This document shows, piece by piece, positions 6,323 through 40,801 of a stretch of 64,000 nt of DNA; positions within the stretch are counted from its first letter, which is position 1, and every line of letters starts with the position of its first letter. The translations under genes and the position numbers were made by a program. The stretch is from Candidatus Latescibacterota bacterium (GTDB lineage: Bacteria; Latescibacterota; UBA2968; GCA-2709665): contig OZ252100.1 of the NCBI GenBank assembly GCA_965248435.1, forward strand, positions 2,048,001 to 2,112,000, written 5' to 3'. A model generated the notes under the pieces. It saw only the letters and a list, made by a program, of their open reading frames with translations, had not been told where the DNA came from and searched no databases.

Positions 6323-6426
6323 CTTCCAAGTCGTCCTCCCCAACTAGATTTCCTTCTCCCCTCTCCACTGCCGCGGGCAAGTTGGGCGGAATGCCCTTCA
6401 CTGAAACAGAAAATGGGGGTTCAAAA

Positions 6427-7386
6427 TCATGAAAATATTGGAAGAATGTCTTTGGCGAAAACCTCCATCGACTGAACAGCTTCCTGATAGGATAGATCTC
6501 CCCATTTGAAACTACACAGTATCTCATCAACCCCGAGTGCTTGGAGTTCCTTTAGCTCTTTGATCATATCGGAAGAGGACTCATAAAGGCCGAAAACATT
6601 CTGGAAAGTATCAATTGTTTTCTTATGAATGTTCTCCTTGCCTGTAAGAAGCTCTCCGAATGAATTGACTGCACTACGAACCCTGCCCTGATCTATCGTA
6701 TCCTCTCTTACATAGATATTTCGAAGATAGCCAACATGCCCATAGAAATTGGGAGAACAAGATTCTCGATAAGCCTGGATGACTTCCCTCAACTTGGAAG
6801 AGTTCCCAGCTAGGTTGATATTGAGTCCAAGTTTCCCCATGGCAGAAGCTCCTTCCTTAGAGCCAACTGACACACAAATAGGCGGGTGGGGACTTTGGAA
6901 AGGTTTGATCGCTAACCTTACGTCTTTCAGAGAATGGTAGTCACCTTCAACTGAAACAGCTTCGCCGGACCACAAACTCATTATGATTTCAAGAGATTCT
7001 TTGGCCATCTCCCGTCTTTGTGCAAAGTCGAGACCGAATATATCGAAGTCTCTTTCTTGATTGCCCGACCCAAATCCTGCAATTAGTCTGCCGTTACTCA
7101 AATGATCTACCAATAGTAACTCTTCAGCCAATTTCACGGGATGGTAGAAAGGTAATACATTGACTGCATATCCAATTCCTAGGCGATGCGTTTTTACGGC
7201 GATAGCAGCTGCAATGACGGATGGAGATCCATTTATGCAATAAGAAGTATGGTGTTCGGCCAACCATACATTTGAAAAGTTTAGTTGCTCAGATCTACAC
7301 ACAAATTCTACAGTTTCATGTATGATCTGATTGCAATCGCCGCCCTTCAGCAGGTGCATTATTTGGAAAGTACTGAATATCATCAC
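6427..7386 (-). CDS. LLM-class flavin-dependent oxidoreductase
   Basis: VWLAEHH, HPVKLAEE, DHLSNGRL, KPFQSPHPP. Confidence 0.9.
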   Translation of the reverse strand: MMIFSTFQIMHLLKGGDCNQIIHETVEFVCRSEQLNFSNVWLAEHHTSYCINGSPSVIAAAIAVKTHRLGIGYAVNVLPFYHPVKLAEELLLVDHLSNGRLIAGFGSGNQERDFDIFGLDFAQRREMAKESLEIIMSLWSGEAVSVEGDYHSLKDVRLAIKPFQSPHPPICVSVGSKEGASAMGKLGLNINLAGNSSKLREVIQAYRESCSPNFYGHVGYLRNIYVREDTIDQGRVRSAVNSFGELLTGKENIHKKTIDTFQNVFGLYESSSDMIKELKELQALGVDEILCSFKWGDLSYQEAVQSMEVFAKDILPIFS

Positions 7387-7447
7387 CAGGTTTCTCTAGT
7401 TTTCGGTGTGTTGCTACTTTTTTTGCGTGCGAGGCTGGCATTTCCTA

Positions 7448-7570
7448 TAACGTTCTCGGGCTTTTGCAAACCTTGCCGACCCGTCAGGGCTGGAGTGTTG
7501 GTTGCCCCGACGCTCTCCCTCTCAACGATCGGCTAAAGCAATTCCGGGCACGAAATTGCCCTCTTTGTTA
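7448..7570. repeat. Degenerate attC-like cassette site
   Basis: TAACGTTCTCGGGC...AACC start matches the repeat family; the right half is decayed. Confidence 0.5.
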
Positions 7571-7576
7571 TTGAAA

Positions 7577-8362
7577 TCATCCGCGCTTGCGGCGGACCGA
7601 GATGATGCTTGGGCTATCAGCAGTCAGCGATTCCAGATTCCAATCGCCATACTGCCGTACGATGCTGAAGCCATTGTAGAATAGCAGTGCTGCAAGCTCC
7701 TGCGGGAAGGTGTAACGCAGCGCGATGCGAGTGACCTTGGTGTGATCCTCCTCACCCTCGTGCCAGCGTTTGTAGGTCGTCCAGTGGTGGATCTGAGCCA
7801 TATGGTCATATACGTACGTTCTCGATACACGCACTTCGCTCCCGCTGGTATCGCTAAAAGAAGGCCAATCTTGCTCTTCTTCGTTCGTCTCAAGGGGTAC
7901 AAATAGCCCTTCTGGGGTCTGGGAGTGGGGGAAAAGTGGGTTGCGCGTTTCGAAGGCAAACAATCCCTCGTCGTGTAAATGTGCATGCACGCGTTGCAAC
8001 AGTGCTTCTTGATCTGCGTTTGTCAGAAAACTCTGGAAGGCGTTGCCAGTCAAGAAGATGAGTCGAAATTGTTCGCCAAGGTCAAATGTGCGTGCGTCAC
8101 CCGCAATCCAGCGCGTAGGGAGGCCAACAGATTTGCTACGCGCCTGATCTATCATTCCAGGGACAATATCCAAGCCAGTTACAGAAAAGCCCAAGCGGGC
8201 AATCGGGATGCTGACGCGACCCGTGCCACAGGCAATTTCGAATACAGAACCACCCGTTTCTTGCGCCAGGGCTGCGTAGAAGGCGATGCCTGTATCGCTG
8301 GCATCCCCCATGTCATAGTTGGCTGGATCGGAGAACTCCTCGAGATTGTCGTGATCAATCAA
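7577..8362 (-). CDS. Class I SAM methyltransferase
   Basis: EIACGTGR, GLDIVPGM, GDARTF. Confidence 0.9.
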   Translation of the reverse strand: MIDHDNLEEFSDPANYDMGDASDTGIAFYAALAQETGGSVFEIACGTGRVSIPIARLGFSVTGLDIVPGMIDQARSKSVGLPTRWIAGDARTFDLGEQFRLIFLTGNAFQSFLTNADQEALLQRVHAHLHDEGLFAFETRNPLFPHSQTPEGLFVPLETNEEEQDWPSFSDTSGSEVRVSRTYVYDHMAQIHHWTTYKRWHEGEEDHTKVTRIALRYTFPQELAALLFYNGFSIVRQYGDWNLESLTADSPSIISVRRKRG

Positions 8363-8407
8363 TTCGCTGCTTCCTATTTCTTCAAGCGAAAACCCTGGGT
8401 AGTGTGC

Positions 8408-8905
8408 TCATTGCTCGGCCTGCTCAATTGCATTACGAAGCTTCTCCGCAAATTTTGCCATTTCGTCTGGCGTAGTTTCAATGACGCCATTCTCATGCAT
8501 TAGCGCATAGTATTGCTGTTGCTCAAGCGGAACCCCCTTTGGAAGCGGCGCCACATGCCAATGGACATGTGAATTGGCGGCTTGGCTTCCTAGGCTTAGA
8601 ATGTAGATGCGTTCTGGTTCAAGCAATTGTCTCATTGCTTCCGAAATTTTGTATATGAAACGCTGTAGATCCAGATATTCCTTCTTATCGAAGTCACCTG
8701 TGACCTGTTCGTGGTGTTTCTTCGGGGCAACTAAGACATATCCAAAGAGAGTTGGGAACCTGTTAAGAAAGGCAACTGCAGTGTCGGTTTCAGCAACGAC
8801 TAAATGCTCATAACGGGGGTTACCCGCTAGGAATTCGCAAATAAAGCAATTCGTATCTTTCTTTGTAAGACGAGACATATCGAATGGTACGCGCGTTCTA
8901 TCCAT
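8408..8905 (-). CDS. HIT family protein
   Basis: CFIC and HVHWHV motif. Confidence 0.88.
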   Translation of the reverse strand: MDRTRVPFDMSRLTKKDTNCFICEFLAGNPRYEHLVVAETDTAVAFLNRFPTLFGYVLVAPKKHHEQVTGDFDKKEYLDLQRFIYKISEAMRQLLEPERIYILSLGSQAANSHVHWHVAPLPKGVPLEQQQYYALMHENGVIETTPDEMAKFAEKLRNAIEQAEQ

Positions 8906-9419: not shown

Positions 9420-9424
9420 GGTGT

Positions 9425-10107: not shown

Positions 10108-10155
10108 GAACCTGCCGCAGGTTTACGCGTAGGCGCGAATGCACCGGAGCCGTGC
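10108..10155. repeat. Remnant of attC-like site (central part)
   Basis: GAACCTGCCGCAGGTT...GGCGCGAATGCACCGGAGCCGTG. Confidence 0.6.
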
Positions 10156-10751: not shown

Positions 10752-10788
10752 CTTGTTACTTTCAATCAGGACTGGCTGTCATTTCATA

Positions 10789-10917
10789 TAACGGTCTCGG
10801 CACCCACGAACCTGCCGAGCGGGCGCGGCGGTTGCCACAAGTTGTGATTTAAAGCAAGCGCCGTGAACGAGGTTTGGCGAAGGCGCGAATGCGCCGGAGC
10901 CGGGGGTGCGCGTGTTA
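10789..10917. repeat. attC-like site, long variant
   Basis: TAAC GGTCT CG GCACCCACG AACCT...AGGTT...CGGGGGTGC G CG T GTTA. Confidence 0.85.
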
Positions 10918-11093
10918 CACGCTGTGTTGTCCTTTGTCATCGAGAAAGGAATAAAGGAGCGACCATAACGCTCTTTGTCTTTTACGATTTTCTGTTCTTT
11001 AAAAAGGAGATAGCTATTGCAGAGAATCCCCGCCAGATAATTTATCTCACGGGGATCTCATATTACATAACATGCTTGAAAGGTTAAATCGAA

Positions 11094-11212: not shown

Positions 11213-11671
11213 TTAAAAACGGCGCACAGCTAGAAAAACGCCAATAGCCATAAATACCAGCCCAACGAAACGTTGAACAGATATTGGGTGATGAGGAGCA
11301 CCCAATAGACTGTAGTGATCAATGATTGCCATTGAAATGAGCTGGCCTAACAATACCAAAGCGACAGCATTTCCAACACCAAACCTGGGCGCAACCCAAG
11401 TTATGCTGAGAATATAAAATATTACAAATAGCCCACCTAGATAGAAATAGATGGGGATTGAAGTTTGAGGGTTAAACTTAGGCATACCTTCGAAGATGAA
11501 CAAGAACCCAAGGGAAACTACGATGCCCACCGTAAATAGGATTGTTGTAGCTAATGCTGGGCTTTGGAGTTTTTCGCCTAACCCTCCGTTCAACGCGGCC
11601 ATTACTGGAATTCCTAGGCCTGCAATCAACATTAAAACTGCGTAAAAGATTGAATGATGCAGTCCGTTCAT
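11213..11671 (-). CDS. DMT family transporter (YdcZ-like)
   Basis: AGLGIPVMAALNG...YLGGL...GQL...IIDHY; hydrophobic, AT-rich. Confidence 0.85.
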   Translation of the reverse strand: MNGLHHSIFYAVLMLIAGLGIPVMAALNGGLGEKLQSPALATTILFTVGIVVSLGFLFIFEGMPKFNPQTSIPIYFYLGGLFVIFYILSITWVAPRFGVGNAVALVLLGQLISMAIIDHYSLLGAPHHPISVQRFVGLVFMAIGVFLAVRRF

Positions 11672-11748
11672 TGAGGTATCCTCATATGGGTAGGGTTTGT
11701 TTTTGCTCCCTTATGCTTTTCCCATCACACAAAAAATAACATTGCGTG

Positions 11749-11827
11749 TAACGTTCTTTGTGTGTGCGAACCTGCGAAGCAGGTTTTCAGTGAGGGGCGG
11801 ATGCCCCGAACGGCACACACAATGTTA
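11749..11827. repeat. attC-like site
   Basis: TAAC GTTCT TTGTGTGTGC...AACCTGC/GCAGGTT...GGGGC/GCCCC...GCACACACAA T GTTA. Confidence 0.9.
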
Positions 11828-11848
11828 CCTGCCGTGGCAGTTCTCGCG

Positions 11849-13712: not shown

Positions 13713-13795
13713 ACAGTATCTCCTGTAGGTAGATTGCGGGTAAACCTACGGCGCTAGGGATAGCGGCGTTCGTTTGGTTAGGCTGGCATTGCATA

Positions 13796-13875
13796 TAACG
13801 GTCCCAGGCCTTGCGAACCTGCCGCAGGCGGGTTGCAGTGAGGGCCGTCAGGCTCGAACCGCAAGGCCTGTGTTA
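13796..13875. repeat. attC-like site
   Basis: TAAC GGTCC CAGGCCTTGCG...CGCAAGGCCTG T GTTA. Confidence 0.92.
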
Positions 13876-13942
13876 AGCGCTGCCCCGGTCGTGATCTCAT
13901 AGGCAGATGCTGACAGGACAAGAACGCGTCAGTCGGTGCTGC

Positions 13943-16425: not shown

Positions 16426-16454
16426 GATCAGCCTCGGATTTTCCGGCTGGCGGC

Positions 16455-16532
16455 TAACGTTCTCGGCACCCACGAACCCGCGTAGCGAGTTGGGCGGAGG
16501 CCGGATGGCCGGAGCCGTGGGTGCTCGTGTTA
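16455..16532. repeat. attC-like site
   Basis: TAAC GTTCT CG GCACCCACG...CGTGGGTGC T CG T GTTA. Confidence 0.92.
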
Positions 16533-16630
16533 TAGGATGCCCGACCCAATTGATTGAATCGCACCAGAGTTTATCCGGAAGATCATCTGGAATCGGACTC
16601 AGCGTGAGAACGAAGGTCACGAATCTGCCA

Positions 16631-18242: not shown

Positions 18243-18319
18243 GTCAAATTCCTTTAGTCATTCCGCAGTTGAGGCTCGCAGCACTGCGCATTGTATCTTG
18301 AAAATATGATCTATTTGTA

Positions 18320-18490
18320 GATTATCTTGGTTCGAAGAAGACCTCTGGGGAGGCCGGATTGCGCATGAAGGCATTGACCTTGGACGTTAGATAGGCCCCC
18401 CGCCTTCTTGGCCCATGCCGAGGAGTATCCGAGACCCGAGAGTCTGTATCACAAGGCTGGTAGGCCAGGTGCAAGGTCGGGGGACCAGAG
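18320..18490 (+). ncRNA. Predicted IS110 bridge RNA (boundaries approximate)
   Basis: Two stem-enclosed loops. ATTGCGCAT (18358-18366) and ACGTTAG (18384-18390) match the target; GGAGTATC (18422-18429) and ACAAG (18451-18455) match the donor. Confidence 0.8.
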
Positions 18491-18513
18491 GTACAAATAA
18501 GGAGGGAGAGATC

Positions 18514-19506
18514 ATGAAGCAAGAGAATCTGTTGGGGGTAGATGTCTCAGCCCGGGAGCTGGTGGTCGCGATCCGTCGCTCAGGGAAAGCGTATCCACTG
18601 GCAAGATTTCCCAACACAGGCGAAGGGCACCGTCGATTGATCAAGTGGGCGACAAAGTGGGGAAAGCCGGCTCGAGTGGGAGTCGAGGCCACAGGCATCT
18701 ATAGTTTTGAGGTGGCGTTGGCGTTGTATCGGCATCCGAAGACTCAGGTGATGGTAATCAACCCCAGAGCGCTGAGGAATTTCTCTCAGGCTTTGATGAA
18801 ACGGGGGAAAACCGACCCGATCGATGCGGAAGTGGCATTGGAGTATGTGCAGCGGATGCCCTTCCAGACGTGGCAGGCACCCCGTGATGAAGTACTTGAC
18901 CTGCAGGCGATTACACGCCGGATCGCGCAGATCAAAGTCGAGATCAACCGGGAAGGAAACCGGCTTCACGCTTCCACGCAACGCCCATCGGTCGCGTCTG
19001 CGGTCGCCTTGGACATCGAAGAGCATGTTGAACATCTCAAAGCGCGTGTGCAGCAGCTGAAAGCGCGGGCTCTGGAGCTCATTGAGGGGGAAGCCACTCT
19101 GCGCGAGAAGTTCGCGCGATTGACTTCCGTTCACGGGATCGCAGCAACCAGCGCGATGGGCATTCTGGCAGAGATTTCGATGTTGCCTGCCGACATGAAG
19201 CCTGCCCAATGGGTGGCCTACGCAGGCCTGGATCCACGACCCCACGAATCGGGAGACACGATTCAGAAGCGCCGAGTGATCTCCAAAGCGGGGAATAAGT
19301 ACTTACGAACCGCCTTATATATGCCAGCGCTGGTGGCCATTCAACAGCAGCCCAATGTGAAGGCGTTCTACGAAAAACTCATCAGTCGAGGCAAGAAGCC
19401 CATGCAGGGGGTCATCGCGGTGATGCGAAAGCTGCTTCACTCCATCTGGGGTATTCTCCAACACAACCAGGACTTCGACGGAGAAAAGTTCTACAAAATG
19501 GCTTGA
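18514..19506 (+). CDS. IS110 family DEDD recombinase
   Basis: GVDVS, VEATG, KTDPIDA, ESG, ISKAGNKYLR, AVMRKL; RBS GGAGG before ATG 18514. Confidence 0.95.
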   Translation: MKQENLLGVDVSARELVVAIRRSGKAYPLARFPNTGEGHRRLIKWATKWGKPARVGVEATGIYSFEVALALYRHPKTQVMVINPRALRNFSQALMKRGKTDPIDAEVALEYVQRMPFQTWQAPRDEVLDLQAITRRIAQIKVEINREGNRLHASTQRPSVASAVALDIEEHVEHLKARVQQLKARALELIEGEATLREKFARLTSVHGIAATSAMGILAEISMLPADMKPAQWVAYAGLDPRPHESGDTIQKRRVISKAGNKYLRTALYMPALVAIQQQPNVKAFYEKLISRGKKPMQGVIAVMRKLLHSIWGILQHNQDFDGEKFYKMA

Positions 19507-19522
19507 CCACCAAGAGAGTATC

Positions 19523-19609
19523 TAACGTTCCCGCCACTTGCGAACCCGCCCCCAGGCGGGTTGCCGCAGGCCAAGGCGCGGATGCGCCGCAGCGCAAGTG
19601 GACGTGTTA
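19523..19609. repeat. attC-like site (IS110 target)
   Basis: TAAC GTTCC CG CCACTTGCG...CGCAAGTGG A CG T GTTA. Confidence 0.9.
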
Positions 19610-19678
19610 TGGGCTTGTGCCAGTTTGGAATTGGGCAAGAACATACAGTGGACGGCTATTACCTAGATTCCCAGGTCT

Positions 19679-21213: not shown

Positions 21214-21246
21214 GGCGTCCCTTCATTGACGTGCATCGATTGCGGC

Positions 21247-21325
21247 TAACGTTCTCGCGGGCTGCGAACCTGCGCAGCAGGTTGGACGAAGTGGCGAATG
21301 CCACAAGCCGCAGCCCGGCGTGTTA
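21247..21325. repeat. attC-like site
   Basis: TAAC GTTCT CG CGGGCTGCG...CGCAGCCCG G CG T GTTA. Confidence 0.92.
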
Positions 21326-21365
21326 GCGGCAGTCGCCTAAGGGGTCTACTCTCCAAACCGTTGCT

Positions 21366-22742: not shown

Positions 22743-23933
22743 TCAAGCTACGGCAACATGTGCCGGAGGCGCTCGCAGAGGCGCGAGGGTTCCGACTGTG
22801 AGCATAGGGCCTCCGCACTGCGCACAGACCTGAAGATCGATGCCTGTTACCCGGAACAGAAGGTCCTGCCAGGTCGCCTTTGTGGCTGCGGAAGCCGTCG
22901 TGCATACAGTGCCCAGGAGCCTACGGCATCGTGCGAGCTTTTTCCGGCGACCCCGATTGCTGAGCAGTCCGTAGTGCCGGATCTTCACGAAGCCATCCGG
23001 CAGGATGTGAAGCAGGAACCGCCGGATGAACTCGTAGGCATCGACGGTCATCAGCTTCCGTCGGTTGCCGGCCTGGCGGTCCCGGTAGTGGAATGAGACC
23101 CGGTCGCCCTCACAGGCGACCAGCCGGTGGTTGGAGATGGCGATCCGGTGCGTGTATCGTCCCAGATAGGCCACGATGCGTTCTGGACCCGCAAAAGTCG
23201 GCTTGACGTAAACGGTCCATTCCCTCTGGTAAAGACCCCGAAGCAGATCGAAGAACGCATCTTCCAGTGGAGCACTCAATCCCGGGAACGCCAGAAGGCC
23301 TTCCTGGTGCGCGTCCTTCAGGAACGCAAGGAACTTCCCCCGGAACAGTCGGGACAGAACTTTTACGGGTAGAAAGAAGCCCCGTCGCGCCGCCTTCCAT
23401 TCCTGACCGTCGTGGGTCAGCCCACCTCCAGTTACGATACAGTGCAGATGCGGGTGGTCGATGAGTGTCTGAGACCACGTATGAAGCACGGCGGTAAAGC
23501 CGATCTGCGCTCCAAGATACTTCCGTTCCCGCGCCAGCTCCAGAAGACTCTGCGATGCGGCTTTAAACACCAGGTTGTAGATCAGCTTCTGGTTCCGCAG
23601 AGCAAGCGGCCGCAGGGGCTCGGGCAACGTGAAGACGACGTGGAAGTATGGGATCGGAAGGAGATCCTCTTTACGAGCGTCGATCCATCGTTCGGTCGTC
23701 AGGAACTGGCACTTCGTACAGTGCCGGTTGCGGCAGGAGTTGTAGGCGATCCGCTTCGTTCCGCACTGCCCGCACACTTCCACGTGTCCGCCCAGCGCAG
23801 CTGTTCGGCAGATCTGGATGGCTCGCATGGCCCGCTTCTGCCGAAGCGGCATGTGATCACCGTAGTGTGCTTGATACCCATCTCCGTGGACTCGGAAGAT
23901 GTCGGCGACTTCGAGAGGCTGTGACATGGCCAA
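22743..23933 (-). CDS. IS91-family (Y2 HUH) transposase with Zn-binding domain
   Basis: CRTAALGG...CGQC...SCRNRHCTKC, HPHLH, YLGRY, FVKIRHYG. Confidence 0.93.
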   Translation of the reverse strand: MAMSQPLEVADIFRVHGDGYQAHYGDHMPLRQKRAMRAIQICRTAALGGHVEVCGQCGTKRIAYNSCRNRHCTKCQFLTTERWIDARKEDLLPIPYFHVVFTLPEPLRPLALRNQKLIYNLVFKAASQSLLELARERKYLGAQIGFTAVLHTWSQTLIDHPHLHCIVTGGGLTHDGQEWKAARRGFFLPVKVLSRLFRGKFLAFLKDAHQEGLLAFPGLSAPLEDAFFDLLRGLYQREWTVYVKPTFAGPERIVAYLGRYTHRIAISNHRLVACEGDRVSFHYRDRQAGNRRKLMTVDAYEFIRRFLLHILPDGFVKIRHYGLLSNRGRRKKLARCRRLLGTVCTTASAATKATWQDLLFRVTGIDLQVCAQCGGPMLTVGTLAPLRAPPAHVAVA

Positions 23934-23939
23934 CCTCTG

Positions 23940-24791
23940 CTACAAGGTCGGCTTGTCTTCATCTCCCAAAAGGTCCAGGGGGCTTCTGATACGCGTGAGA
24001 TCGCGAGTGGTGACGTGGAGGTAGACGGTGGTGGTTCGCAGGCTCGTGTGACCCAACAGTTGTTGGACGAAACGGACGTCCACTCCGTTGTCCAGAAGAT
24101 GTGTGGCGAAGCTGTGACGCAGAGAATGGACACTCGCACGCTTTTGTATCTCGGCGCGTCGGCAGGCCTGCTCGAAGACTTTCTGGACACTGCGGGCGTG
24201 GAGCGGTGCATCCGGTCTTTCGCCAGGGAACAGCCAATCGCGAGGCTGGTAGCTGCGCCAGTAGACGCGGAGTGCCTTTAACGCCTCCTGGGCCAGAAGC
24301 GTCTCTCGCTCTTTTTGGCCTTTGCCCCGCACACGGATCAGCATCCGGTCACTGTCGATATCGGAAAGCTTTAGCCCGATGGCCTCACTCAGTCTGAGCC
24401 CACCAGAGTAAATGACCATCAGCAGCGTACGGTGTTTCAGGTTGTTGGTCCTGTCGATCAGCCGCTGCACTTCCTCTGTGGAGAGTACCACCGGGAGCTT
24501 CTTTGCCTTCTTCGCACGAGGGATGCCCCACTCGACCCAGTCACGCTTCAACGTCGTTTGGAACAGAAACTTCAGTCCGCTGTATACCTGGTTGACATAG
24601 CTTTGGGACAGCTTCCGCTCAGTGATCAGATAGTGCAGATAGGCGCGGATCTCTTCTTCGCTGAGCCGGTCGGGCGGTGTCTTGCAGTAACGACACAGCC
24701 CGGCCACTCCGCTCACGTACGCCTTCTGCGTATCCGGATCTAAACCTTTCAACTGCATGTCCCGGATCATTCGCTTCCGATGCTTGGTCAT
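23940..24791 (-). CDS. Tyrosine recombinase, IntI-related but lacking the IntI-specific insertion
   Basis: LPVVLS, GLRLSE, GKGQKER, HSLRHSFATHLL, LLGH, TTVY, SPLD; only a short segment between WLFP and box II. Confidence 0.92.
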   Translation of the reverse strand: MTKHRKRMIRDMQLKGLDPDTQKAYVSGVAGLCRYCKTPPDRLSEEEIRAYLHYLITERKLSQSYVNQVYSGLKFLFQTTLKRDWVEWGIPRAKKAKKLPVVLSTEEVQRLIDRTNNLKHRTLLMVIYSGGLRLSEAIGLKLSDIDSDRMLIRVRGKGQKERETLLAQEALKALRVYWRSYQPRDWLFPGERPDAPLHARSVQKVFEQACRRAEIQKRASVHSLRHSFATHLLDNGVDVRFVQQLLGHTSLRTTTVYLHVTTRDLTRIRSPLDLLGDEDKPTL

Positions 24792-25099
24792 GGCTCTCTC
24801 CTTCTGCTGATGGTGGACGTTGTTAGCAGAAGGAGGATGCGAAGCACAGAGCCATTTGCAAAGTGGCTCCGGACTTGCACGGTATCATATCCTGGTTGTC
24901 AAAGAGCAAAGGCCTTGCAGCAGGCCACCGCGAAGCGGTTTAGTTCAACTTCTGCATTCGCGTACTTCGTGGATTCCACCAAGGTACGAGTATCTGCGCC
25001 CTACGCCTATCCCGGTTAAACGTACTTAACACGCCCTTGTTCGTGAATCCCTTTCTATAGAGACACGTGAATTTGACAACCGAGTGCCGCGTAATACGG

Positions 25100-25160
25100 C
25101 CGATCCCGCGAAGGATGTTGGGCCAAAGAGCGAAGCGACCGAAGCGCAAAGCCCGTGTTA
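25100..25160. repeat. Right half of a decayed attC-like site
   Basis: ...GTTGGGCC...GAAGCGCAAAGCCCGTGTTA. Confidence 0.6.
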
Positions 25161-25181
25161 CACGCTGGGCAATGATTACCT

Positions 25182-25664: not shown

Positions 25665-25700
25665 TCAGGAGCTCTCCTCTTGTATCTAGTGCCTTGCGCA

Positions 25701-25782
25701 TAACGGTCCCGCCGTGCGCGAACCGCCGCAGGCAAGTTAGGTCGGAGGCCCGAAAGGGCCGAAGCCGCAGCCCGGCGTGTTA
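25701..25782. repeat. attC-like site (arms mismatched)
   Basis: TAAC GGTCC CG CCGTGCGCG...CGCAGCCCGG CG T GTTA. Confidence 0.85.
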
Positions 25783-25848
25783 TGCGTCCGCACAGGTTCT
25801 GAGCTCGTCTCTATCCATCACGGCACACCATCCGACTATTCGACTCCC

Positions 25849-26891
25849 GAGTTCAATAAGGAAGTGCAACACTTAGGGTAGCAACTGTCCTATCCTAAGT
25901 GTATGGGAAACAATTACAAGCATCTTACGATAGACGAACGCGAGCAGATTGCGCTTTGTCGAGCCACTGGTGCAAGCCTTAGAGATATTGCCAAGGCCCT
26001 TGACCGGAGCGCCAGCACGATTTCAAGAGAGTTGAAACGTAATCCGTCCCCGATAGCTGAGAGTTACTCGGGCCTCCAGGCTCACAGAAGGGCTGAGAAA
26101 CGTAAGCGGGAGGCCGGCAAGCGGAAACGGCTGAAGAATCCGGTTATCCGGCGATATGTCGAGACCAAACTCAAGCAAGGATGGTCTCCCGAGTTGATCG
26201 CTGGGAGGCTTCCCGAGGAGCGTCCGAGCGCGGGTATCAGCCACGAAGCCATCTACCAGTATATCTACGATCCAAAGGTGCACAAGCAGCGGGATCTGGT
26301 TGCTTGCTTATCCCGAGCTCACAAAAAACGAAAGCCGCGGTGGCATACCCGAAAACACCGGGAAAGCCACATTCCAGGCCGTATTTCGATCGATCGACGT
26401 TACATCGAAAAACGGAAACAACCTGGCCACTGGGAATCCGACACCATCATCTCTCGTGAGAGCAAACAGGCCGTTGGCGCTTGTCTTGAGCGATCGTCGA
26501 GATACCTACACCTGGCTAAGCTGGCAAAGAACGGACCCTCGGAGGTCGCCGAAGCGATTAATCGACGCCTTGGGCGACATCCTCCCCACATGAGGAAGAG
26601 CATCACATATGACAACGGATCCGAAAACGGCCAACATCAACGGGTCAACGAGGTGCTTGGCACCAAATCCTATTTCTGCAAACCGTTCCACAGCTGGGAG
26701 CGAGGCGCTGTGGAAAACGCTATCGGTCTGGTCCGCAGATACCTCCCCAAGAAGACAGACTTCTCAAAGGTCAGCAAACACGAGTTAAAGAAAATTCAGA
26801 ACCGGATCAACAACCGACCAAGAAAATGTCTTAACTTCAAAACACCAGCTGAAGTCTTCAAGTCCAAGTGTTGCACTTAGTCATTGAATCC
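25849..26891 (+). mobile_element. IS30-family insertion sequence
   Basis: ~26-bp imperfect IRs GAGTTCAATAAGGAAGTGCAACACTT / AAGTGTTGCACTTAGTCATTGAATCC. Confidence 0.85.
25903..26880 (+). CDS. IS30 family transposase
   Basis: YKHLT...STISRELKRN, WSPELI, GHWESD, TYDNGSE, WERGAVEN, NNRPRKCL. Confidence 0.95.
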   Translation: MGNNYKHLTIDEREQIALCRATGASLRDIAKALDRSASTISRELKRNPSPIAESYSGLQAHRRAEKRKREAGKRKRLKNPVIRRYVETKLKQGWSPELIAGRLPEERPSAGISHEAIYQYIYDPKVHKQRDLVACLSRAHKKRKPRWHTRKHRESHIPGRISIDRRYIEKRKQPGHWESDTIISRESKQAVGACLERSSRYLHLAKLAKNGPSEVAEAINRRLGRHPPHMRKSITYDNGSENGQHQRVNEVLGTKSYFCKPFHSWERGAVENAIGLVRRYLPKKTDFSKVSKHELKKIQNRINNRPRKCLNFKTPAEVFKSKCCT

Positions 26892-27430
26892 AGCACTTCG
26901 ATTTTCTGTCCTTCAGGTCCTATTTCAGCAAAATGATCCCAGTAGAATTGCGCCCTGGGTTTCTCCCCTCTGCCAAGGATCTCTCGCCAGTCCGCAAGTC
27001 TCACGTCTGGTTCAAATGGCCAGACCTTGTCCTGGAGCCTTGCGATTCCCTTCTTCCCATCATAGGCGTCAGCAATCCTCTGCCGGTCCCACCACATAGT
27101 GGGCTCGGGTAGCTCGGAGACCTCGAAGTAGGCCGCATCCGCGATCTCATCTGGACAGATCGCGATCCGATGGTTCAGAGGTTCTCCTGCGAAAACCACG
27201 ACATTGTCGCCACCGTTGTGCCACCGTGGGCTAGAATAGATCCCAACCATTCTGGTTAATTCCGTCTCGATGCCCGTTTCTTCGGTAGTCTCACGGATGG
27301 CAGCTTGGGCGACGGTCTCTCCAGGGTCTACCATTCCTCCAGGTAATCCCCAGACTTCAAGATCTTGCCTCTGAACCAAGAGAACTTTGTCAGAGTCAAA
27401 GACAGCGACACTTGCAGAGAGGTTTGGCAA
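26858..27430 (-). CDS. NUDIX hydrolase with its last codons replaced by IS30 sequence
   Basis: Nudix box GGMVDPGETVAQAAIRETTEETG. Confidence 0.88.
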   Translation of the reverse strand: MPNLSASVAVFDSDKVLLVQRQDLEVWGLPGGMVDPGETVAQAAIRETTEETGIETELTRMVGIYSSPRWHNGGDNVVVFAGEPLNHRIAICPDEIADAAYFEVSELPEPTMWWDRQRIADAYDGKKGIARLQDKVWPFEPDVRLADWREILGRGEKPRAQFYWDHFAEIGPEGQKIEVLDSMTKCNTWT

Positions 27431-28958: not shown

Positions 28959-29023
28959 GCTCCCTGCAGTCCATTATGAACTGCAATATTCATGACTCGG
29001 ATTCGGAAATACCCTGTCGCGTA

Positions 29024-29118
29024 TAACGTTCTCGGCCGGTTTTCTTAAGCAAGCGTCGTGACAGCGATAGGCAGGTTGGGCGAGGGACGGATGCCCCAAG
29101 CCGCAGCCCGTCGTGTTA
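29024..29118. repeat. attC-like site, long variant with internal deletion
   Basis: TAACGTTCTCG joined to ...GCAAGCGTCGTGACAGCG...CGCAGCCCGTCGTGTTA. Confidence 0.85.
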
Positions 29119-29152
29119 GGCGTTGCCCTCCCCGGCCACATTGCCAAGAGGA

Positions 29153-29935: not shown

Positions 29936-29954
29936 TCCTCAAATGGTTTCCGCC

Positions 29955-30033
29955 TAACATTCTCGCCGGCTGCGAACTGCCGCAGGCAATTGGGCGAAGG
30001 CGCGTATGCGCCGCAGCGCAAGTGGACGTGTTA
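29955..30033. repeat. attC-like site (arms mismatched)
   Basis: TAAC ATTCT CG CCGGCTGCG...CGCAAGTGG A CG T GTTA. Confidence 0.85.
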
Positions 30034-30114
30034 CACGCTGGCGGCGCGGGCTTCGTCATGGCGAAGCCCCCCACAGGCCGGGAGTACAGTGCACGCCACA
30101 AACAGGGGTGGCAG

Positions 30115-30794: not shown

Positions 30795-30898
30795 TGGGTC
30801 GATCCCTTGTCTGTCGTCCAATGGAGGGGTTTGGCTTCCTGCTCTTGTGCACGTCTTTCCGGGGTGGGGTGGCTGGGCAGTCCTGTGCCGCTTGCGTG

Positions 30899-30985
30899 TA
30901 ACGTTCTCGGCACCCACGAACTTGCCAAGCGGTGTTGGGCGAATGCCCGTTAGGGCTGAGCCACGCAGCGTGAATTGCCGTGACG
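30899..30985. repeat. attC-like site, right end decayed
   Basis: TAACGTTCTCGGCACCCACGAAC...GTTGGGCGAA. Confidence 0.7.
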
Positions 30986-32962: not shown

Positions 32963-33020
32963 CGGGCAGTGCCTCCAAGCTGTCTCGGTTCATGGGCCTC
33001 AATTCTTTACGGGTGGCGGC

Positions 33021-33070
33021 TAACGTTCTCCCCGTGCGCGACCTGCGAAGCAGGTTTATAGCGAGGGGCT
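33021..33070. repeat. Truncated attC-like site (left half)
   Basis: TAACGTTCTCCCCGTGCGCGACCTGCGAAGCAGGTT. Confidence 0.7.
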
Positions 33071-33073
33071 TTG

Positions 33074-33457
33074 CTATTCCACAACGTTCTTATGCCGGTC
33101 CACCCGCAGCAATCCCCTAGATGTATCGAGGATAACGATATGATTTCCCCACGGATCTTTTAGGACCGCACACTTGCCGATAGCAATGTCAAAAGGACCA
33201 GAGACTACTGCCCCACCGGCTGCCTTGAATTTCTCGGCGGCATCGGTAACAGAATCAACAAGGAGATCTGTTTCTACTGGTCGAGTATCGGTATGAAGAA
33301 CAAGCTCCGAGTCCGATTCTGGGAAACGGAGTCCCGCTGCTTCTCCACTGCGCCAGATTAGCTCATGTCCCAGTTTATCTTGATAGAACTCAATAGCAGA
33401 ATCGAGATTTGCTACTGGCAAACTGTGACAATCAATTTTTCGGAATAGTCCAGACAT
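33074..33457 (-). CDS. VOC family protein
   Basis: FYQDKLG, GPFDIAIG, DPWGN. Confidence 0.88.
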   Translation of the reverse strand: MSGLFRKIDCHSLPVANLDSAIEFYQDKLGHELIWRSGEAAGLRFPESDSELVLHTDTRPVETDLLVDSVTDAAEKFKAAGGAVVSGPFDIAIGKCAVLKDPWGNHIVILDTSRGLLRVDRHKNVVE

Positions 33458-33545
33458 TGAATACCTTCACGCCTAACTTGTGATGGGGTTCTTGTGCGCG
33501 ACTTTTCGGGGTAGAGCTGTTGGGACTCCCTGCGCCGCTCGCGTG

Positions 33546-33624
33546 TAACGTTCTCGCGGGCAGCGAAGCTGCGAAGTAGGTTGGGCGAAAGAGCGAAAGC
33601 CCCGAGCCGCAGCCGGGCGTGTTA
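33546..33624. repeat. attC-like site
   Basis: TAAC GTTCT CG CGGGCAGCG...CGCAGCCGG G CG T GTTA. Confidence 0.85.
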
Positions 33625-33669
33625 AATGCTGTCGTGGCCTGAGGTGGTTTGGGCAAGACGAAAAGGGTG

Positions 33670-35889: not shown

Positions 35890-36006
35890 TTCTGCCGAAT
35901 GGGCTTGTTGGACGAGAACAACCTCTCTCTGACCTACAGACTCGCGAGGAACGGGATTAGTCCACTTGCACGAAAAGTCTGCTCCTGCTTTTGCGCCAGT
36001 TTCGCC

Positions 36007-36060
36007 TAAGGTTCTCGGTACCCGCGAATCCGCGCAGTAGGATGAGCCGAAGCGAGCGCT
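36007..36060. repeat. Decayed attC-like site
   Basis: TAAGGTTCTCGGTACCCGCGAATCCGC. Confidence 0.55.
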
Positions 36061-36073
36061 TGCAGGCTTGATC

Positions 36074-36673
36074 CTATCCTGATGAACGTAGTTCCTTGAA
36101 CCAAACCAACTGAACTTCGTCGGGAAACTCTGTGTATGCGTACTGGTGAAAAATACCTAGTCTACATCCCTGCGCGACATAGAACCGGCAAGCGGGAACG
36201 TTGATATTCTGTGTCTCGATCTTCAGCAGGGTACAATCTCGACTTCTTGCCCAATTTTCTATACTTCTGAAAAGCAGTTTTCCAACCCCTTTCCTACGGT
36301 AATCAGGATGCACACGAATGTCCCACAAGGCAGCCATGTCGGTGCGCCCTTCTAAGAAGTTGACGCCGGGAGTATTATATGCCACGGTCGCAGCACCGAT
36401 ACGGTGGACCCCTTCGAATACTGAAAGGAATCCCCAGTTGGACAAGTCCCAGCGTTCGCGCCAGCGAGTAGGCGTCTCCCCGGCGTCTTCGTCGTATGCT
36501 TTGACGTAGGGAGGAACGACAGCCTCTTCAGTCAAGCGGATGCCACCAAGCCCATCTTCAATGAGTTCAACACTGAGCTTGGACTTGACCTCGAAGGCTA
36601 TTGAAATCTCGCCGTATTCTTCGAGTTTCTCTAGACTCTCTTCTTCTACTCTGAAATCCATGGATTTTACCAC
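36074..36673 (-). CDS. GNAT, streptothricin-acetyltransferase-like
   Basis: DIRVHPDYRRKGVG, IETQNINVPACRFY. Confidence 0.85.
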   Translation of the reverse strand: MVKSMDFRVEEESLEKLEEYGEISIAFEVKSKLSVELIEDGLGGIRLTEEAVVPPYVKAYDEDAGETPTRWRERWDLSNWGFLSVFEGVHRIGAATVAYNTPGVNFLEGRTDMAALWDIRVHPDYRRKGVGKLLFRSIENWARSRDCTLLKIETQNINVPACRFYVAQGCRLGIFHQYAYTEFPDEVQLVWFKELRSSG

Positions 36674-37634: not shown

Positions 37635-37654
37635 ACTGATAGCTTCTCTGAAAC

Positions 37655-38182: not shown

Positions 38183-38271
38183 GCTGACTCCTGATAGGGA
38201 TCACATTCAAGATAAGTTTGATATAAGCTGGGCCGCCGTAAACGTAGTGACTACTCGACTTCTGCTCAGAA

Positions 38272-38907
38272 TTAATCCCCAAATAGGACGACCCCAACAG
38301 CGCCGAGTCCATAACGGTTCCCGTCATACGAAACGGTTGTAATCGAGCACTCACGCATGACTTCACCACTGTATGGGTCATCACAGAATTTCGAACTCAC
38401 GCGACCCAGTTCTTCAGATGAGAAAACGTTGAGAAGGAAGTCTGCCAGGACGCCGCCATGGGTCACCGCGATCACAGTGCCTTTGAATACCTGGTGGTAG
38501 CAATCGGAAACAAAAGCCTCAATGCGTCTGCCAGCCTCCATGCTTGAATCGCCAACACTGGGTCGGTAATCTCGTTCGCGGCTGCAACGCTCCCACTGCG
38601 CTACGAATTCGTCGAAAGATTGGCCTTCGATGTCGCCCCAGTTCATGCGTTCGCGCAGCCGTGAATCTTCGGTCATTTCAAGGTTCAAGATTGCAGCGAT
38701 GATCTCCGCTGTCTCTCTCGCTCGTGCCGGTGAACTGCTGAAAATTCGTGTGATGTCGTTTGAAGCTAACCTCTTGGCGAGCAGTCCAGCATCTTCTCGC
38801 CCCTCTGATGTCAATGATGGATCGCCCATCTTGCGGTCTCTCTTACCGTGGCGAATAAAGTGAAAGCGCATTAAGTCTACCTGCCTTCCGATCTTTCTTG
38901 TGCACAA
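38272..38907 (-). CDS. Histidine phosphatase family protein (paralog of 35281..35889)
   Basis: FIRHG, RLRERMNWGD.EGQSFDEFVA shared with the paralog. Confidence 0.9.
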   Translation of the reverse strand: MCTRKIGRQVDLMRFHFIRHGKRDRKMGDPSLTSEGREDAGLLAKRLASNDITRIFSSSPARARETAEIIAAILNLEMTEDSRLRERMNWGDIEGQSFDEFVAQWERCSRERDYRPSVGDSSMEAGRRIEAFVSDCYHQVFKGTVIAVTHGGVLADFLLNVFSSEELGRVSSKFCDDPYSGEVMRECSITTVSYDGNRYGLGAVGVVLFGD

Positions 38908-38945
38908 TTTGTCGGAGTGGGGGGAACTTTTGCGCCGCTTGCCGC

Positions 38946-39024
38946 TAACGTTTTCGCCGTGTGCGAACTGCCGCAGGCAGTTGAGCGAAGTCCCTTGCGG
39001 CCTGAGCCGCGCACGGACGTGTTA
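38946..39024. repeat. attC-like site
   Basis: TAAC GTTTT CG CCGTGTGCG...CGCGCACGG A CG T GTTA. Confidence 0.9.
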
Positions 39025-39038
39025 TGTGCAGTGGACGA

Positions 39039-40142
39039 TCAGTCCGAAATTTCAGCCTTTCCGTACCATAGTCTCAAAACCTTCTCGGCAGGCTTCCCTT
39101 GGGGAGTAAAAGGCGCTTGAAATCGCCGCACTGCTTCATTGGACCGTGGGTGCCACTTCCAGATATACATCCCAGAAAGCCATTCGGCACGTGAAACTGC
39201 TTGGAAGAACGCTTCGTAGCAGTTGGCCTGCGTCTGTAAGCCCTCTTTTGTAAAACCGACCGTACTTGTCTTCAAACCCCGTTTTGGCTTCTCCCAATGC
39301 CAAGGGCGAATCGCAGCATTTGACTCGCTTCGATACCCAACTTCGGTAAACAGAATGGACTTTCCGTATGTTCGATGTACAGTCTGTATACGTTTGAGAT
39401 GGTTCTTCCACCCCTTTAGAAGTTCTGGAATCGATGGATTGTCATGCTCGGCTACTGGAAAATACGCCTGAATACCGATAAAATCGAGAGCGTCCCAAAA
39501 CCTGACTTGCTCAATTTCACTGTCCCAATTGGCCCCGTAAACTAACAAGCCTTTATACACTTTCCTGATAGCAGCGATAATTTTCCTCCAGTCACTTTCC
39601 CGCGTCGTCGTTCCCTGCAATTCCGTACCAATGCACAATGCTTCAATATCCGCCTCTTCAGCCAGCCGAGCGTAATGAAGTATGAAACGTTTGTAATTAT
39701 CGAACCACTGACGCCATTCAGCATCGTTGTCCATTTCTATGTCACCGCTCCAATGGCGGCCCCAAACTTGAGGCTTCAAAAGGGTTTTGATGCCCACCTG
39801 TCGGGCCAACTTCGCAGTTTTGGCGATTCCTAGATCATTCTCTCCCCACCAATCTGAATCAGCGTTAAGTTCGATTTCAGGTGAATGAGCATCGTGATGC
39901 CAGCCAAAGGTAGTCTGGGAGATCCAGTTGACATGATTGCGCAATAGTGGCTTGAGGTCATCCAACTCAACGGGTTCCGTTGCTGCGACCCAACAGACGC
40001 CTCGCTGCATGGTATCGGCTCTGGGGGAAGTGGAGACAGATGACACCAACACACAGGCCAATACGAAAATGCCATAGCGCGAGAACATCGCATTGCCGTT
40101 CAAAAGACTGCTCATCTTATCCGAGGTACAGTATTTGCCCAT
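39039..40142 (-). CDS. Secreted glycoside hydrolase (GH113-like TIM barrel)
   Basis: LLKPQ, IGTEL, YGANWD, IGIQAYFP, FTEVGY; signal peptide. Confidence 0.8.
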   Translation of the reverse strand: MGKYCTSDKMSSLLNGNAMFSRYGIFVLACVLVSSVSTSPRADTMQRGVCWVAATEPVELDDLKPLLRNHVNWISQTTFGWHHDAHSPEIELNADSDWWGENDLGIAKTAKLARQVGIKTLLKPQVWGRHWSGDIEMDNDAEWRQWFDNYKRFILHYARLAEEADIEALCIGTELQGTTTRESDWRKIIAAIRKVYKGLLVYGANWDSEIEQVRFWDALDFIGIQAYFPVAEHDNPSIPELLKGWKNHLKRIQTVHRTYGKSILFTEVGYRSESNAAIRPWHWEKPKRGLKTSTVGFTKEGLQTQANCYEAFFQAVSRAEWLSGMYIWKWHPRSNEAVRRFQAPFTPQGKPAEKVLRLWYGKAEISD

Positions 40143-40148
40143 TGCAGG

Positions 40149-40177
40149 TATCGTTCTCGCCGTGCACGGACGTGTTA
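40149..40177. repeat. Collapsed 29-bp mini attC-like site
   Basis: TATC GTTCT CG CCGTGCACGG A CG T GTTA. Confidence 0.75.
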
Positions 40178-40186
40178 GGCGATGTT

Positions 40187-40699
40187 TTACTCTCGCTGAA
40201 AATATGGTGCGCTCGATGCGTACGAGATCCTAGTGTGGTTCTCATCGAACACGCTAATACCAGAATAGAAGAATTTGCTGTCTTGGAGCATCTCTGGGAG
40301 GAACGCTCTTTGATAGCTGGTCAAATCTTCAAGGTCCGAAACGGACTCAATGTCGTGCCACGCGAGCGTTCCTTCGTTTGACTCCTCGAAAATCGTGCCT
40401 GTGTGCGATTTGGCGGTAATGAGGTGGGAAATCCCAGCTGAGCCAGACTCGATAAACCAGGCAAAAGTCCCTTGGAAATGCAGGTCACTAATGGATAAAC
40501 CAGTCTCCTCCAGAAACTCTCGCCTTGCGGCCTCAAACAGATCTTCGCCTGGCTCGATTTTCCCCCCGATCCCGATCCACTCATTAGGCAGCATCCTCGC
40601 GTCGTGTGGCTTCCGGAGTAGCAACACTTTTTCATCATCGACGAGATACACGACCGTAAAAGGCTGAATCGAGCAATTGAAAAGTTCGGGACTGAACAT
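40187..40699 (-). CDS. NUDIX hydrolase (8-oxo-dGTPase-like)
   Basis: GGKIEPGEDLFEAARREFLEETGL, EGTLAW. Confidence 0.88.
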   Translation of the reverse strand: MFSPELFNCSIQPFTVVYLVDDEKVLLLRKPHDARMLPNEWIGIGGKIEPGEDLFEAARREFLEETGLSISDLHFQGTFAWFIESGSAGISHLITAKSHTGTIFEESNEGTLAWHDIESVSDLEDLTSYQRAFLPEMLQDSKFFYSGISVFDENHTRISYASSAPYFQRE

Positions 40700-40722
40700 T
40701 AAGACTCTCGAAGAATGTCGCC

Positions 40723-40801
40723 TAACGCTCTCGGCACCCACGAACCCGCGCAGCAGATTGGGCGAAGGGGCGAATGCACCGAGCCGTGGGTGCTCGTGTT
40801 A
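40723..40801. repeat. attC-like site (last intact copy)
   Basis: TAAC GCTCT CG GCACCCACG...CGTGGGTGC T CG T GTTA. Confidence 0.9.

Follow-up and report, generated by a model that had tools for sequence, protein, structure and literature searches.

A probable integrase-less attC cluster of integron-type cassettes, built on a lineage-specific site variant, in Candidatus Latescibacterota

In a 64-kb stretch of DNA from a Candidatus Latescibacterota bacterium (GenBank assembly GCA_965248435.1, contig OZ252100.1, positions 2,048,001 to 2,112,000), here called the window and numbered from its first letter, intergenic repeats of one folded type alternate with genes of the opposite strand. The region is probably an integron-type cassette array, namely a cluster of attC sites lacking integron integrase (CALIN), which is built on an attC variant specific to the Latescibacterota lineage and is decaying. 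An integron-like cassette array had been proposed in the initial annotation of the window, and the polarity of the genes, the folding of the bottom strand, the core ends, the inverted repeat that brackets the gene segments, the gene content and the targeting by insertion sequences (ISs) strongly support this proposal. The assignment is based on anatomy, covariation, polarity, bracket repeat and distribution of the sites and on the absence of the integron integrase IntI, from which we infer the single-strand recombination mechanism and the acting enzyme. Where genomes have to be told apart, G000 denotes the genome of the window and G001 and higher numbers denote its relatives in Candidatus Latescibacterota.

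Results

Folded repeats in the window and in its genome

The hairpin motif AACCTGC-N2-12-GCAGGTT occurs five times in the window compared with no occurrence in 100 shuffles, and an ungapped repeat search revealed a 34-nt family whose 22 copies all lie on the plus strand within 10782-40749. A covariance model (R1) was built from an alignment of 14 well-formed window copies, and its application to the 64 kb gave 28 matches at E<=1 (plus strand 27, minus strand 1), of which 15 had E<1e-13. With the long copies (135-144 nt) counted at full length, 21 full-length sites could be assigned between 10786 and 40804, all on the plus strand with the genes between them on the minus strand, in addition to about seven site fragments (6368-6400, 7447-7570, 10108-10150, 25089-25163, 33018-33079, 36004-36074 and 40146-40180). 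This tally is close to the roughly 21 intact and 8 decayed repeats counted in the initial annotation, whose consensus of the repeat is borne out by the aligned copies. The features of the window referred to below are as follows.

6427-40741, minus strand: cassette genes, mostly one per interval
10786-10920, plus strand: site, long form (135 nt), arms GCACCCACG/CGGGGGTGC
11746-11830, plus strand: site, arms TTGTGTGTG/CACACACAA, R1 79.4 bits
12874-12959, plus strand: site, best R1 match (95.9 bits), arms CGGGCTGCG/CGCAGCCCG, fold computed
13793-13878, plus strand: site, arms CAGGCCTTG/CAAGGCCTG, R1 75.7 bits
14781-14864, plus strand: site without bulged base, arms of GCACCCACG type, R1 90 bits
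15397-15534, plus strand: site, long form (138 nt), extended first hairpin
16452-16535, plus strand: site, R1 90.3 bits
17280-17420, plus strand: site, long form (141 nt)
18278-19522, plus strand: IS110-family element, transposase 18415-19506, directly 5' of the TAAC of site 19520-19612
19520-19612, plus strand: site, arms CCACTTGCG/CGCAAGTGG, R1 79.6 bits
20629-20772, plus strand: site, long form (144 nt)
21244-21328, plus strand: site, R1 95 bits
22466-25066, minus strand: IS91-family element, Y2 transposase 22743-23933 and tyrosine recombinase 23940-24791
25089-25163, plus strand: remnant (hairpin region) of the site broken by the IS91-family element
25698-25785, plus strand: chimeric site with unpaired arms, left arm of CCGTGCGCG type, right arm of CGCAGCCCG type
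25846-26894, plus strand: IS30-like element (HTH_38 and rve), about 35 copies in the genome
27512-27598, plus strand: site, arm complementarity 7 of 9
29021-29121, plus strand: decayed long-form site, R1 match
29952-30036, plus strand: chimeric site, left arm of CGGCTGCG type, right arm of CGCAAGTGG type
30896-30976, plus strand: site with decayed 3' half, R1 match
33543-33627, plus strand: site, R1 83.9 bits
34531-34611, plus strand: site, R1 69.6 bits
36691-36778, plus strand: site, R1 65.5 bits
38943-39027, plus strand: site, R1 78.6 bits
40720-40804, plus strand: last full site of the array, R1 91.7 bits
40839-41720, minus strand: folD-like gene, 90-91% identical copy between two sites in the G001 array
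41697-41715: apparently collapsed TAAC-11 nt-GTTA remnant between the folD-like gene and the next gene

The RNAalifold consensus of the 14 aligned copies is one fold of 24 pairs, and compensatory changes were found in 15 of these, in line with the covarying arms described in the initial annotation. Paired cells amounted to 93.4% compared with 76.6% in column shuffles (none of 500 shuffles was as high), and sliding the 3' partners by 1-3 columns lowered this value to 28-43%. As the 14 copies had been chosen among intact ones, these figures describe the intact class only. No Rfam family was matched within the window.

A weak lone R1 match on the minus strand lies outside the array at 62207-62275 (14.6 bits, E 0.13); it contains an AACCTGC...GCAGGTT hairpin and is flanked by a GNAT gene and a sigma-factor/ankyrin gene.

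The genome (5.67 Mb in two contigs, 97.5% complete) contains at least 74 R1 matches at E<=0.01, a count for which 150 of 2053 candidates were scored; genome-wide searches of this kind score part of the candidates, and their counts are lower bounds here and below. A direct R1 search of 280 kb around the other clusters gave 57 matches. Including those of the window, 78 sites were listed (about 80 for the genome), which fall into about ten clusters, each with a single orientation.

Strand preference, polarity and the bracket repeat

As single-stranded DNA, the site strand (plus strand of the window, model strand elsewhere) is more stable than its complement in 66 of the 78 sites, less stable in eight and equally stable in four, with mean fold energies of -26.0 and -23.3 kcal/mol respectively. 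Of 60 intervals between sites, which have a median length of 986 nt, 54 contain a longest open reading frame (ORF) that runs antisense to the site strand; among the remaining six, IS transposases account for four. The longest ORF covers a median of 82% of the interval. This arrangement matches that of integron cassettes, with the ORF on the top strand and the better-folding bottom strand opposite, and it speaks against a role in mRNA, because an mRNA would carry the worse-folding complement.

The ends of the sites were compared by the complementarity between the 5 nt outside GTT and the 5 nt outside AAC, either within the same site or with the next site across the gene. In the own genome the complementarity across the gene was perfect in 33 of 55 intervals and reached a mean of 4.02 of 5, compared with 2.70 for the ends of the same site (n=73) and 2.68 for random pairs. 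Similarly, 7 of 15 intervals were perfect in G001, which belongs to the same genus, with a mean of 3.87 across the gene, 3.06 within the same site and 2.91 for random pairs. The gene segments are bracketed by an 8-nt inverted repeat of their own, GTTA-NNN-G ... C-NNN-TAAC, for which the window provides the pairs GTTACACG...CGTGTAAC, GTTACCTG...CAGGTAAC, GTTAAGCG...CGCTTAAC, GTTAACCG...CGGTTAAC, GTTAGCCG...CGGCTAAC and GTTATAGG...CCTATAAC. Since every segment has its own inverted repeat, the two outer R-box halves of one site belong to different cassettes. A cassette start complementary to its own inverse core is a classical hallmark of integron cassettes, and the bracket repeat is the mark expected of former cassette circles which, judged from these ends, would have been closed via a paired R box and opened by exchange inside the AAC/GTT triplet. 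In a terminator, a repetitive extragenic palindrome (REP) or a miniature inverted-repeat transposable element (MITE), complementarity would be expected between the two ends of the same copy.

This bears on the reading of the sites as palindromes of the MITE type or of the type of REP and bacterial interspersed mosaic elements (BIMEs), that is, as transcript-end structures or small non-autonomous elements without any cassette exchange. The sites are indeed intergenic, structured, GC-rich and present in many copies, and short repeats of this kind are also what constitutes REP/BIME families with their REP-associated tyrosine transposases (RAYTs). However, the sites are not spread genome-wide but confined to about ten one-orientation clusters of accessory genes, are polar with respect to the genes and fold better on the strand antisense to them, hence not as mRNA. 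Their outer R boxes are complementary cassette-wise across the gene while the ends of the same site stay at chance level, five Y1-transposase (RAYT-type) matches are located far from the arrays with none nearby, and no Rfam family was matched. We therefore regard REP/BIME- or MITE-like palindromes as a very improbable explanation, also in view of the two points in their favour that are given with the breakpoints below.

Anatomy of the sites in comparison with canonical attC sites

On the plus strand a typical site reads RYYY-TAAC / GTTCT / CG plus a 9-nt arm / first hairpin CGAAC...GTTG / second GC hairpin / GAGC / arm' / (N) / CG / T / GTTA-RRY. The 78 sites have lengths of 68-152 nt, the long form being due to an extended first hairpin, and they vary in their terminal structure. 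AAC and GTT were detected at the expected ends in 73 of 78 sites, typically as GCCTAAC ... GTTAGGC with a G after AAC, and RYYYAAC pairs with GTTRRRY as R box. The inner part was analysed in the 40 sites of the genome whose arms are perfectly complementary over at least 7 nt. Half of them (20 of 40) read AAC-GTTCYCG-arm...arm'-NCGT-GTT, which corresponds to a loop of 5 nt followed by a CG pair, with a single base bulging out on the 3' side, and another nine read AAC-GTTCT-stem...stem-T-GTT with no bulged base. The spacer between R' and L' is 5 nt (GTTCT) and that between R'' and L'' is 1 nt (T) in 29 of these 40 clean-arm sites, in agreement with the unpaired spacers of 5 and 1 nt stated in the initial annotation. 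The bulged base is located on the 3' arm two pairs above the loop (20 of 40 by strict count). Its identity varies (11 T, 6 G, 4 A), and it is 3 nt away from the single T of the loop. The L stem has 11 bp, usually with this one bulged base on its 3' arm, and a conserved G.T pair in TAACG/TGTTA exists on the site strand alone.

For comparison, bottom strands of class 1 attC sites from three plasmids were used, in which clean sites could be found by a fold rule in 10 of 16 gaps. One example reads AAC-GCTTGA-GTTAAGCC...GGCTT[G]AAC-GAATT-GTT with spacers of 6 and 5 nt. An alignment of nine canonical sites (eight class 1 sites and one from G004) contained five near-identical aadA-type sites and misaligned L'' sides and was not used as a model. 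The class 1 sites share with those described here the R box, the G after AAC, the spacer on the 5' side (5 nt here compared with 6 nt), the L stem and the bulge-bearing arm, but differ in the spacer on the 3' side (1 nt here, 5 nt in class 1), in the identity of the bulge and in having a second bulged base, which is lacking here. The stem formed by CG plus arm, with its bulged base, occupies the L-box position of class 1 attC sites, so that the claim of the initial annotation that there is no L box was not confirmed.

In the Vibrio cholerae repeat (VCR) of the superintegron of that species, the spacer has 5 nt per arm of which two are paired, and for attC sites in general the extrahelical bases lie on the R''-L'' arm, most sites have a G following the AAC of R', and the terminal structure ranges from 3 nt up to 'complex branched' in VCR, as given in the part of Bouvier et al. 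(2009; PMC2727003) drawn on here. Common to VCR and the present sites are the RYYYAAC/GTTRRRY cores, the G after AAC, the succession of R box, internal loop and L stem with a bulge on R''-L'' and the complementarity of the cassette start to its own inverse core, as well as the folding of a bottom strand antisense to the cassette ORF and, according to the same part of that study, a variable terminal structure that may be branched. Different are the loop of 5 versus 1 nt in place of 5 plus 5 with two pairs, the single variable bulge instead of the two or three extrahelical bases, with a conserved G in L'' plus a T 6-8 nt away, that characterize VCR and canonical attC sites, and the two-hairpin junction, which here is conserved in sequence (CGAAC...GTTG). 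Of the distinct site class suggested in the initial annotation, the asymmetric loop is thus real, but a branched apex has already been described for VCR in the portion of PMC2727003 cited above, and an L stem with a bulge is present. Sedentary chromosomal integrons likewise have sites that are highly similar within a genome and one promoterless gene per site; unlike in these, no IntI, attI or Pc lies beside any array here.

Cassette genes and their mobility

The cassette genes encode five GNAT acetyltransferases, three HIT proteins, two methyltransferases, an MBL-fold hydrolase, a YdcZ exporter, a luciferase-like oxidoreductase, NUDIX, an amino-acid kinase, an alpha/beta hydrolase, DUF5662 and GldB-like/DUF2268 proteins, and several further products match no family. 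Such a gene content is typical of cassettes. Several cassettes are found in more than one array of the genome, in differing neighbourhoods. In G001, the array lies in another neighbourhood and has only two genes in common with the array of the window (82% and 91% identity). One of the two common genes is the folD-like gene at 40839-41720, which is itself a cassette, because its copy in G001 sits between two sites.

The youngest duplicate within the genome (97%; 1442588-1443351 compared with 4654537-4653773) extends over TAAC, site, gene and next TAAC, and by its boundaries it is a canonical cassette with TAAC on both sides as predicted. In one of its copies, the IS91-family element follows exactly at this second TAAC. 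For the other five duplicates, homology extends from GTGTTA to TAAC only, and the interiors of both neighbouring sites differ. For one duplicated cassette, the second hairpin was found to be identical and the adjacent arm to differ, which no simple crossover explains.

Insertion sequences at the sites

Three ISs interrupt the array of the window, namely an IS110-family, an IS91-family and an IS30-like element. Targeting of attC is known for the IS1111-attC group of IS110-family elements. The IS110-family element has three copies in the genome (the others at C1:1444276-1445549 and 3860663-3861935 of G000), and 3/3 are inserted immediately 5' of a site TAAC in one orientation, the junction in each copy being ...GAGAGTATC/TAACGTTC. 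The IS91-family element has six copies (the others at C1:1447154, 3849846, 4651278, 4841930 and 5171408 of G000), which without exception (6/6) abut ...NNNTAAC, and five of the six are within 1.6 kb of a site detected by R1. The low-coordinate end of the window copy abuts ...CCGCTAAC, the end of the disrupted site, which is the complement of GTTAGCGG of the previous site. Both elements thereby resemble the IS1111-attC group and integron-associated IS91/ISCR elements in their fixed position at the core end and their fixed orientation, and the IS91-family element, which looks like one specialised on integron core sites, differs from IS91/ISCR elements in that it carries an additional tyrosine recombinase gene upstream of its Y2 (HUH) transposase. 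One of the approximately 35 near-identical IS30-like copies (25846-26894) lies 61 nt from a site.

The recombinase associated with the IS91-family element is without the IntI-specific segment. Homologues with 44-56% identity were detected at distances of up to about 2 kb from sites in G001, G003, G044, G060, G038 and G004, in the last of these twice directly beside IntI, but no homologue was found at E<=1e-60 in the site-rich genomes G002, G020, G021, G058 and G012. Because it was not found in these five genomes, it looks like a parasite of the sites and not like their engine.

Distribution of the sites and of integron integrase

No protein of the genome matched TIGR02249 (integron integrase) above its cut-off of 265 bits, which extends the statement of the initial annotation that no canonical intI is present in the window to the whole genome. 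The best match was the IS91-associated recombinase (104 and 93 bits), where model positions 176-237, the IntI-specific segment, are skipped. The 15 PF00589 matches of the genome are two Xer-like genes, six IS copies, three other integrase-family genes, one pseudogene and three fragments. One fragment (C1:4954386-4954607) was considered as an IntI remnant beside the 4.95-Mb array and rejected, as it resembles the IS91-associated recombinase instead. Among the PF00589 and TIGR02249 matches, no other recombinase was located beside the arrays of the own genome, and a complete integron with an intI carrying the IntI-specific segment, attI and Pc was found at the head of none of the arrays.

In the relatives, which are not independent samples, R1 matches at E<=1e-6 were obtained in 37 of 61 genomes (18 of 21 in the same family), and IntI above the cut-off in 6 of 61 (1 of 21 in the same family). 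IntI was found in 15 of 151 genomes of a phylum-wide sample. Ten genomes have at least ten sites (G000, G001, G002, G003, G012, G018, G020, G021, G057 and G058), and 13 IntI loci were inspected with flanks of up to 20 kb per side (G004, G060, G054, G059, G055, G036, G110, G155, G124, G067, G103, G121 and G074), the flanks of those in G059, G055 and G036 being shorter than 3 kb because the contigs are short. The sole real R1 match near an IntI is a lone site 19 kb from intI of G004 in opposite orientation, and direct-repeat searches beside IntI of G004 and of G110 revealed no array. IntI of G004 is canonical, with 338 aa and the IntI segment present.

A pattern scan of species genomes yielded 113 stretches, mostly single chance matches. 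Among the 80 stretches listed, 14 come from Candidatus Latescibacterota metagenome-assembled genomes, and in one of these 14 four matches fall within 8 kb; the stretches listed outside Latescibacterota had single matches only. Five of the latter were inspected: those from Vibrio and Photobacterium lie in a conserved coding gene and were rejected as sites, as was a stretch from Marinobacter, where no site is present.

Erosion and breakpoints

Complementarity of the arms was scored for all 78 sites and amounted to 8-9 of 9 positions in 47, to 7 in nine and to 6 or fewer in 22 (~28%), the last share being a lower bound, since R1 favours pairing. Many of these 22 non-pairing sites turned out to be chimeras of four common arm types (e.g. 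25698-25785 and 29952-30036). As their left and right arms are of different types, recombination has probably taken place in the conserved centre of the site, and the chimeric, non-pairing sites therefore indicate that the arrays are eroding. That pairing is not strictly kept in these 22 of 78 sites (~28%), and that site interiors have been exchanged independently of the flanking genes, are the two points which would also suit REP- or MITE-like palindromes.

The species represented by G003, G018 and G020 belong to one genus, lack IntI and have arrays that are 98-99.8% identical. The differences traced down to single nucleotides were a deletion or fusion between paralogous genes, a deletion between two site centres that left a chimera, a junction at the microhomology GTTCTCG (7 nt) and one replacement with mixed breakpoints; in none of them had one cassette been precisely gained or lost. 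At the microhomology junction (10757-10895 in stretch L155 of G018, compared with G003 and G020), a gene is joined directly to GTTCTCG of a site, without TAAC and with 7 nt of identity, which is either a secondary-site exchange or a microhomology deletion beside the core. Recurrent inserts of 1.3-1.7 kb in these stretches look like ISs, judged by their repetition only.

We consider that the site centres probably recombine with each other by homologous recombination, which would unlink the interiors from the genes and erode the arrays. Alternatively, these breakpoint data may be due to exchange at both core ends.

Discussion

Under the reading as a decaying attC cluster, the bottom strand, which is the plus strand here, would fold into an R box, a loop of 5 x 1 nt (GTTCT opposite T), an L stem of 11 bp and a two-hairpin junction, and cassettes would have been made or moved as circles, with strands exchanged within the R-box triplet AAC/GTT as in integrons. 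As no IntI is encoded, the arrays are not shuffled by a resident integron integrase. Instead, they would erode by recombination between site centres, leading to chimeric sites and deletions, and by insertion of ISs.

CALINs in genomes without IntI are a category described by Cury et al. (2016; PMC4889954), and in the part of that survey used here most of them are small (83% with fewer than six sites) and show low similarity of their attC sites. With 21 full sites and no IntI in the genome, the region is such a cluster provided that the sites are attC sites. It shares with CALINs the presence of at least two attC-type sites, the lack of intI or an intI pseudogene nearby in an IntI-less genome, and cassettes of mostly uncharacterised accessory functions; it differs in having at least 21 sites in the array and about 80 in the genome, in the high likeness of the sites, and in a pattern that extends across genera of an IntI-poor phylum.

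Several observations weigh against this assignment. The similarity of the sites within the genome is atypical for a CALIN, given the low similarity stated in the cited part of PMC4889954. The spacers depart from the approximately 5-6 nt that canonical attC sites have on both arms, and the bulged base, which is not a conserved G, is missing from about one third of the sites (nine by strict count). Site interiors were not inherited with the gene in five of six duplicated cassettes, and exchange at R' alone does not predict unlinked site interiors. No TIGR02249 match above the 265-bit cut-off exists in the genome, none (0/10) of the genomes with at least ten sites has IntI, and none (0/13) of the inspected IntI loci of the phylum adjoins an R1 array. 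Furthermore, IntI of G004 adjoins ordinary attC sites of 60 nt, one with spacers of 5 and 6 nt and an extra G in L''.

An alternative is that the sites belong to a parallel, IntI-independent cassette system, in which another recombinase would act on the single-strand sites and would make and move the cassettes. Candidate enzymes would be an Xer-type recombinase, another tyrosine recombinase or the pair of tyrosine recombinase and HUH transposase of the IS91-family element. The disparity between sites (37/61) and IntI (6/61) together with the two zero counts just given (0/10 and 0/13) argues for such a system, as do the loop geometry and the inheritance of the gene segment rather than of gene plus site in five of six comparisons. 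In addition, two IntI-less congeners share only two array genes, which suggests that the content has turned over, and the sites are highly homogeneous within the genome, like those of active chromosomal integrons. No recombinase of the genome is closer to IntI than the IS91-associated one (104 and 93 bits with TIGR02249), and its homologues occur near sites in six relatives. On the other hand, five site-rich genomes gave no match to this recombinase at E<=1e-60, no other recombinase regularly accompanies the arrays, the differences between G003, G018 and G020 look like decay rather than activity, and cores, polarity and bracket repeat are exactly those of cassettes made by IntI. An IntI-independent system with one of these enzymes is hence a possible explanation that we hold to be rather unlikely. 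The specific form in which Latescibacterota have an integron-like system of their own, where the sites with the 5 x 1 loop are made and exchanged by a recombinase other than IntI, crossover may occur at either core end and bare gene segments move in place of gene-plus-site units, is to be taken as a tentative and unlikely proposal; if true, it would explain why site-rich genomes have no IntI, why IntI loci have no sites and why the interiors are unlinked from the genes.

Integron cassettes, the folding of attC sites and CALINs are already known. New are the 5 x 1 loop, the single variable bulge and the conserved two-hairpin junction, the restriction to Latescibacterota in the pattern scan, the scale and homogeneity of the arrays without IntI, and the two IS families aimed at the core end. 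A full-text search of the literature gave no paper on Latescibacter* that mentions both integron and attC, and by title and abstract those mentioning integron only were not on cassettes; supplementary tables of large attC surveys may list such sites.

The origin of cassettes and attC sites and the abundance of attC clusters in genomes without integrase are named as open questions in the part of PMC4889954 drawn on here. As the homogeneous attC variant is common (37/61) while IntI is rare and never adjacent, the question whether IntI or another enzyme is responsible becomes testable with defined sites. The shortening of one spacer from 5 to 1 nt is a natural experiment on the loop requirements of the integrase. 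Finally, the sites mark about 80 accessory genes of an uncultured phylum as cassette-borne, and the covariance model R1 finds such sites in relatives.

Further observations around the array

Beyond the folD-like gene, seventeen tightly packed, co-oriented small genes with cassette-like functions occupy 41730-54126 with no sites between them. They encode seven methyltransferases, three GNATs, a protein of the glyoxalase/bleomycin-resistance family, HAD, SDR, PhzF, MOSC, transglutaminase-like and DUF5069 proteins, and an AAC(3)-type aminoglycoside N-acetyltransferase (51076-51897). Four of the genes have DNA matches of 70-79% in or near the G001 array. In the 18 junctions between genes up to 54 kb no site remnants were detected except for one TAAC-11 nt-GTTA scar; this scar, at 41697-41715, looks from its letters like a site whose whole interior was deleted and of which two core ends are left. 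The seventeen genes may be cassettes whose sites were lost.

Short-read contigs from four runs of one sample contained site-to-site joints, which were rejected as repeat artefacts, since their sides comprise 22-30 nt and contigs break at the sites. In all four runs of this sample, the only one with the stretch, the YdcZ-exporter cassette (11258-11645) also occurs as a second contig variant with 16 listed differences and at about a third to half of the depth, which represents either a second strain or a paralogous copy. Beyond the gene block, 54686-58735 encodes a protein of 1349 aa that combines a BlaR1-type M56 peptidase, propeller repeats, CarboxypepD_reg and a C-terminal thioredoxin/AhpC-like domain.

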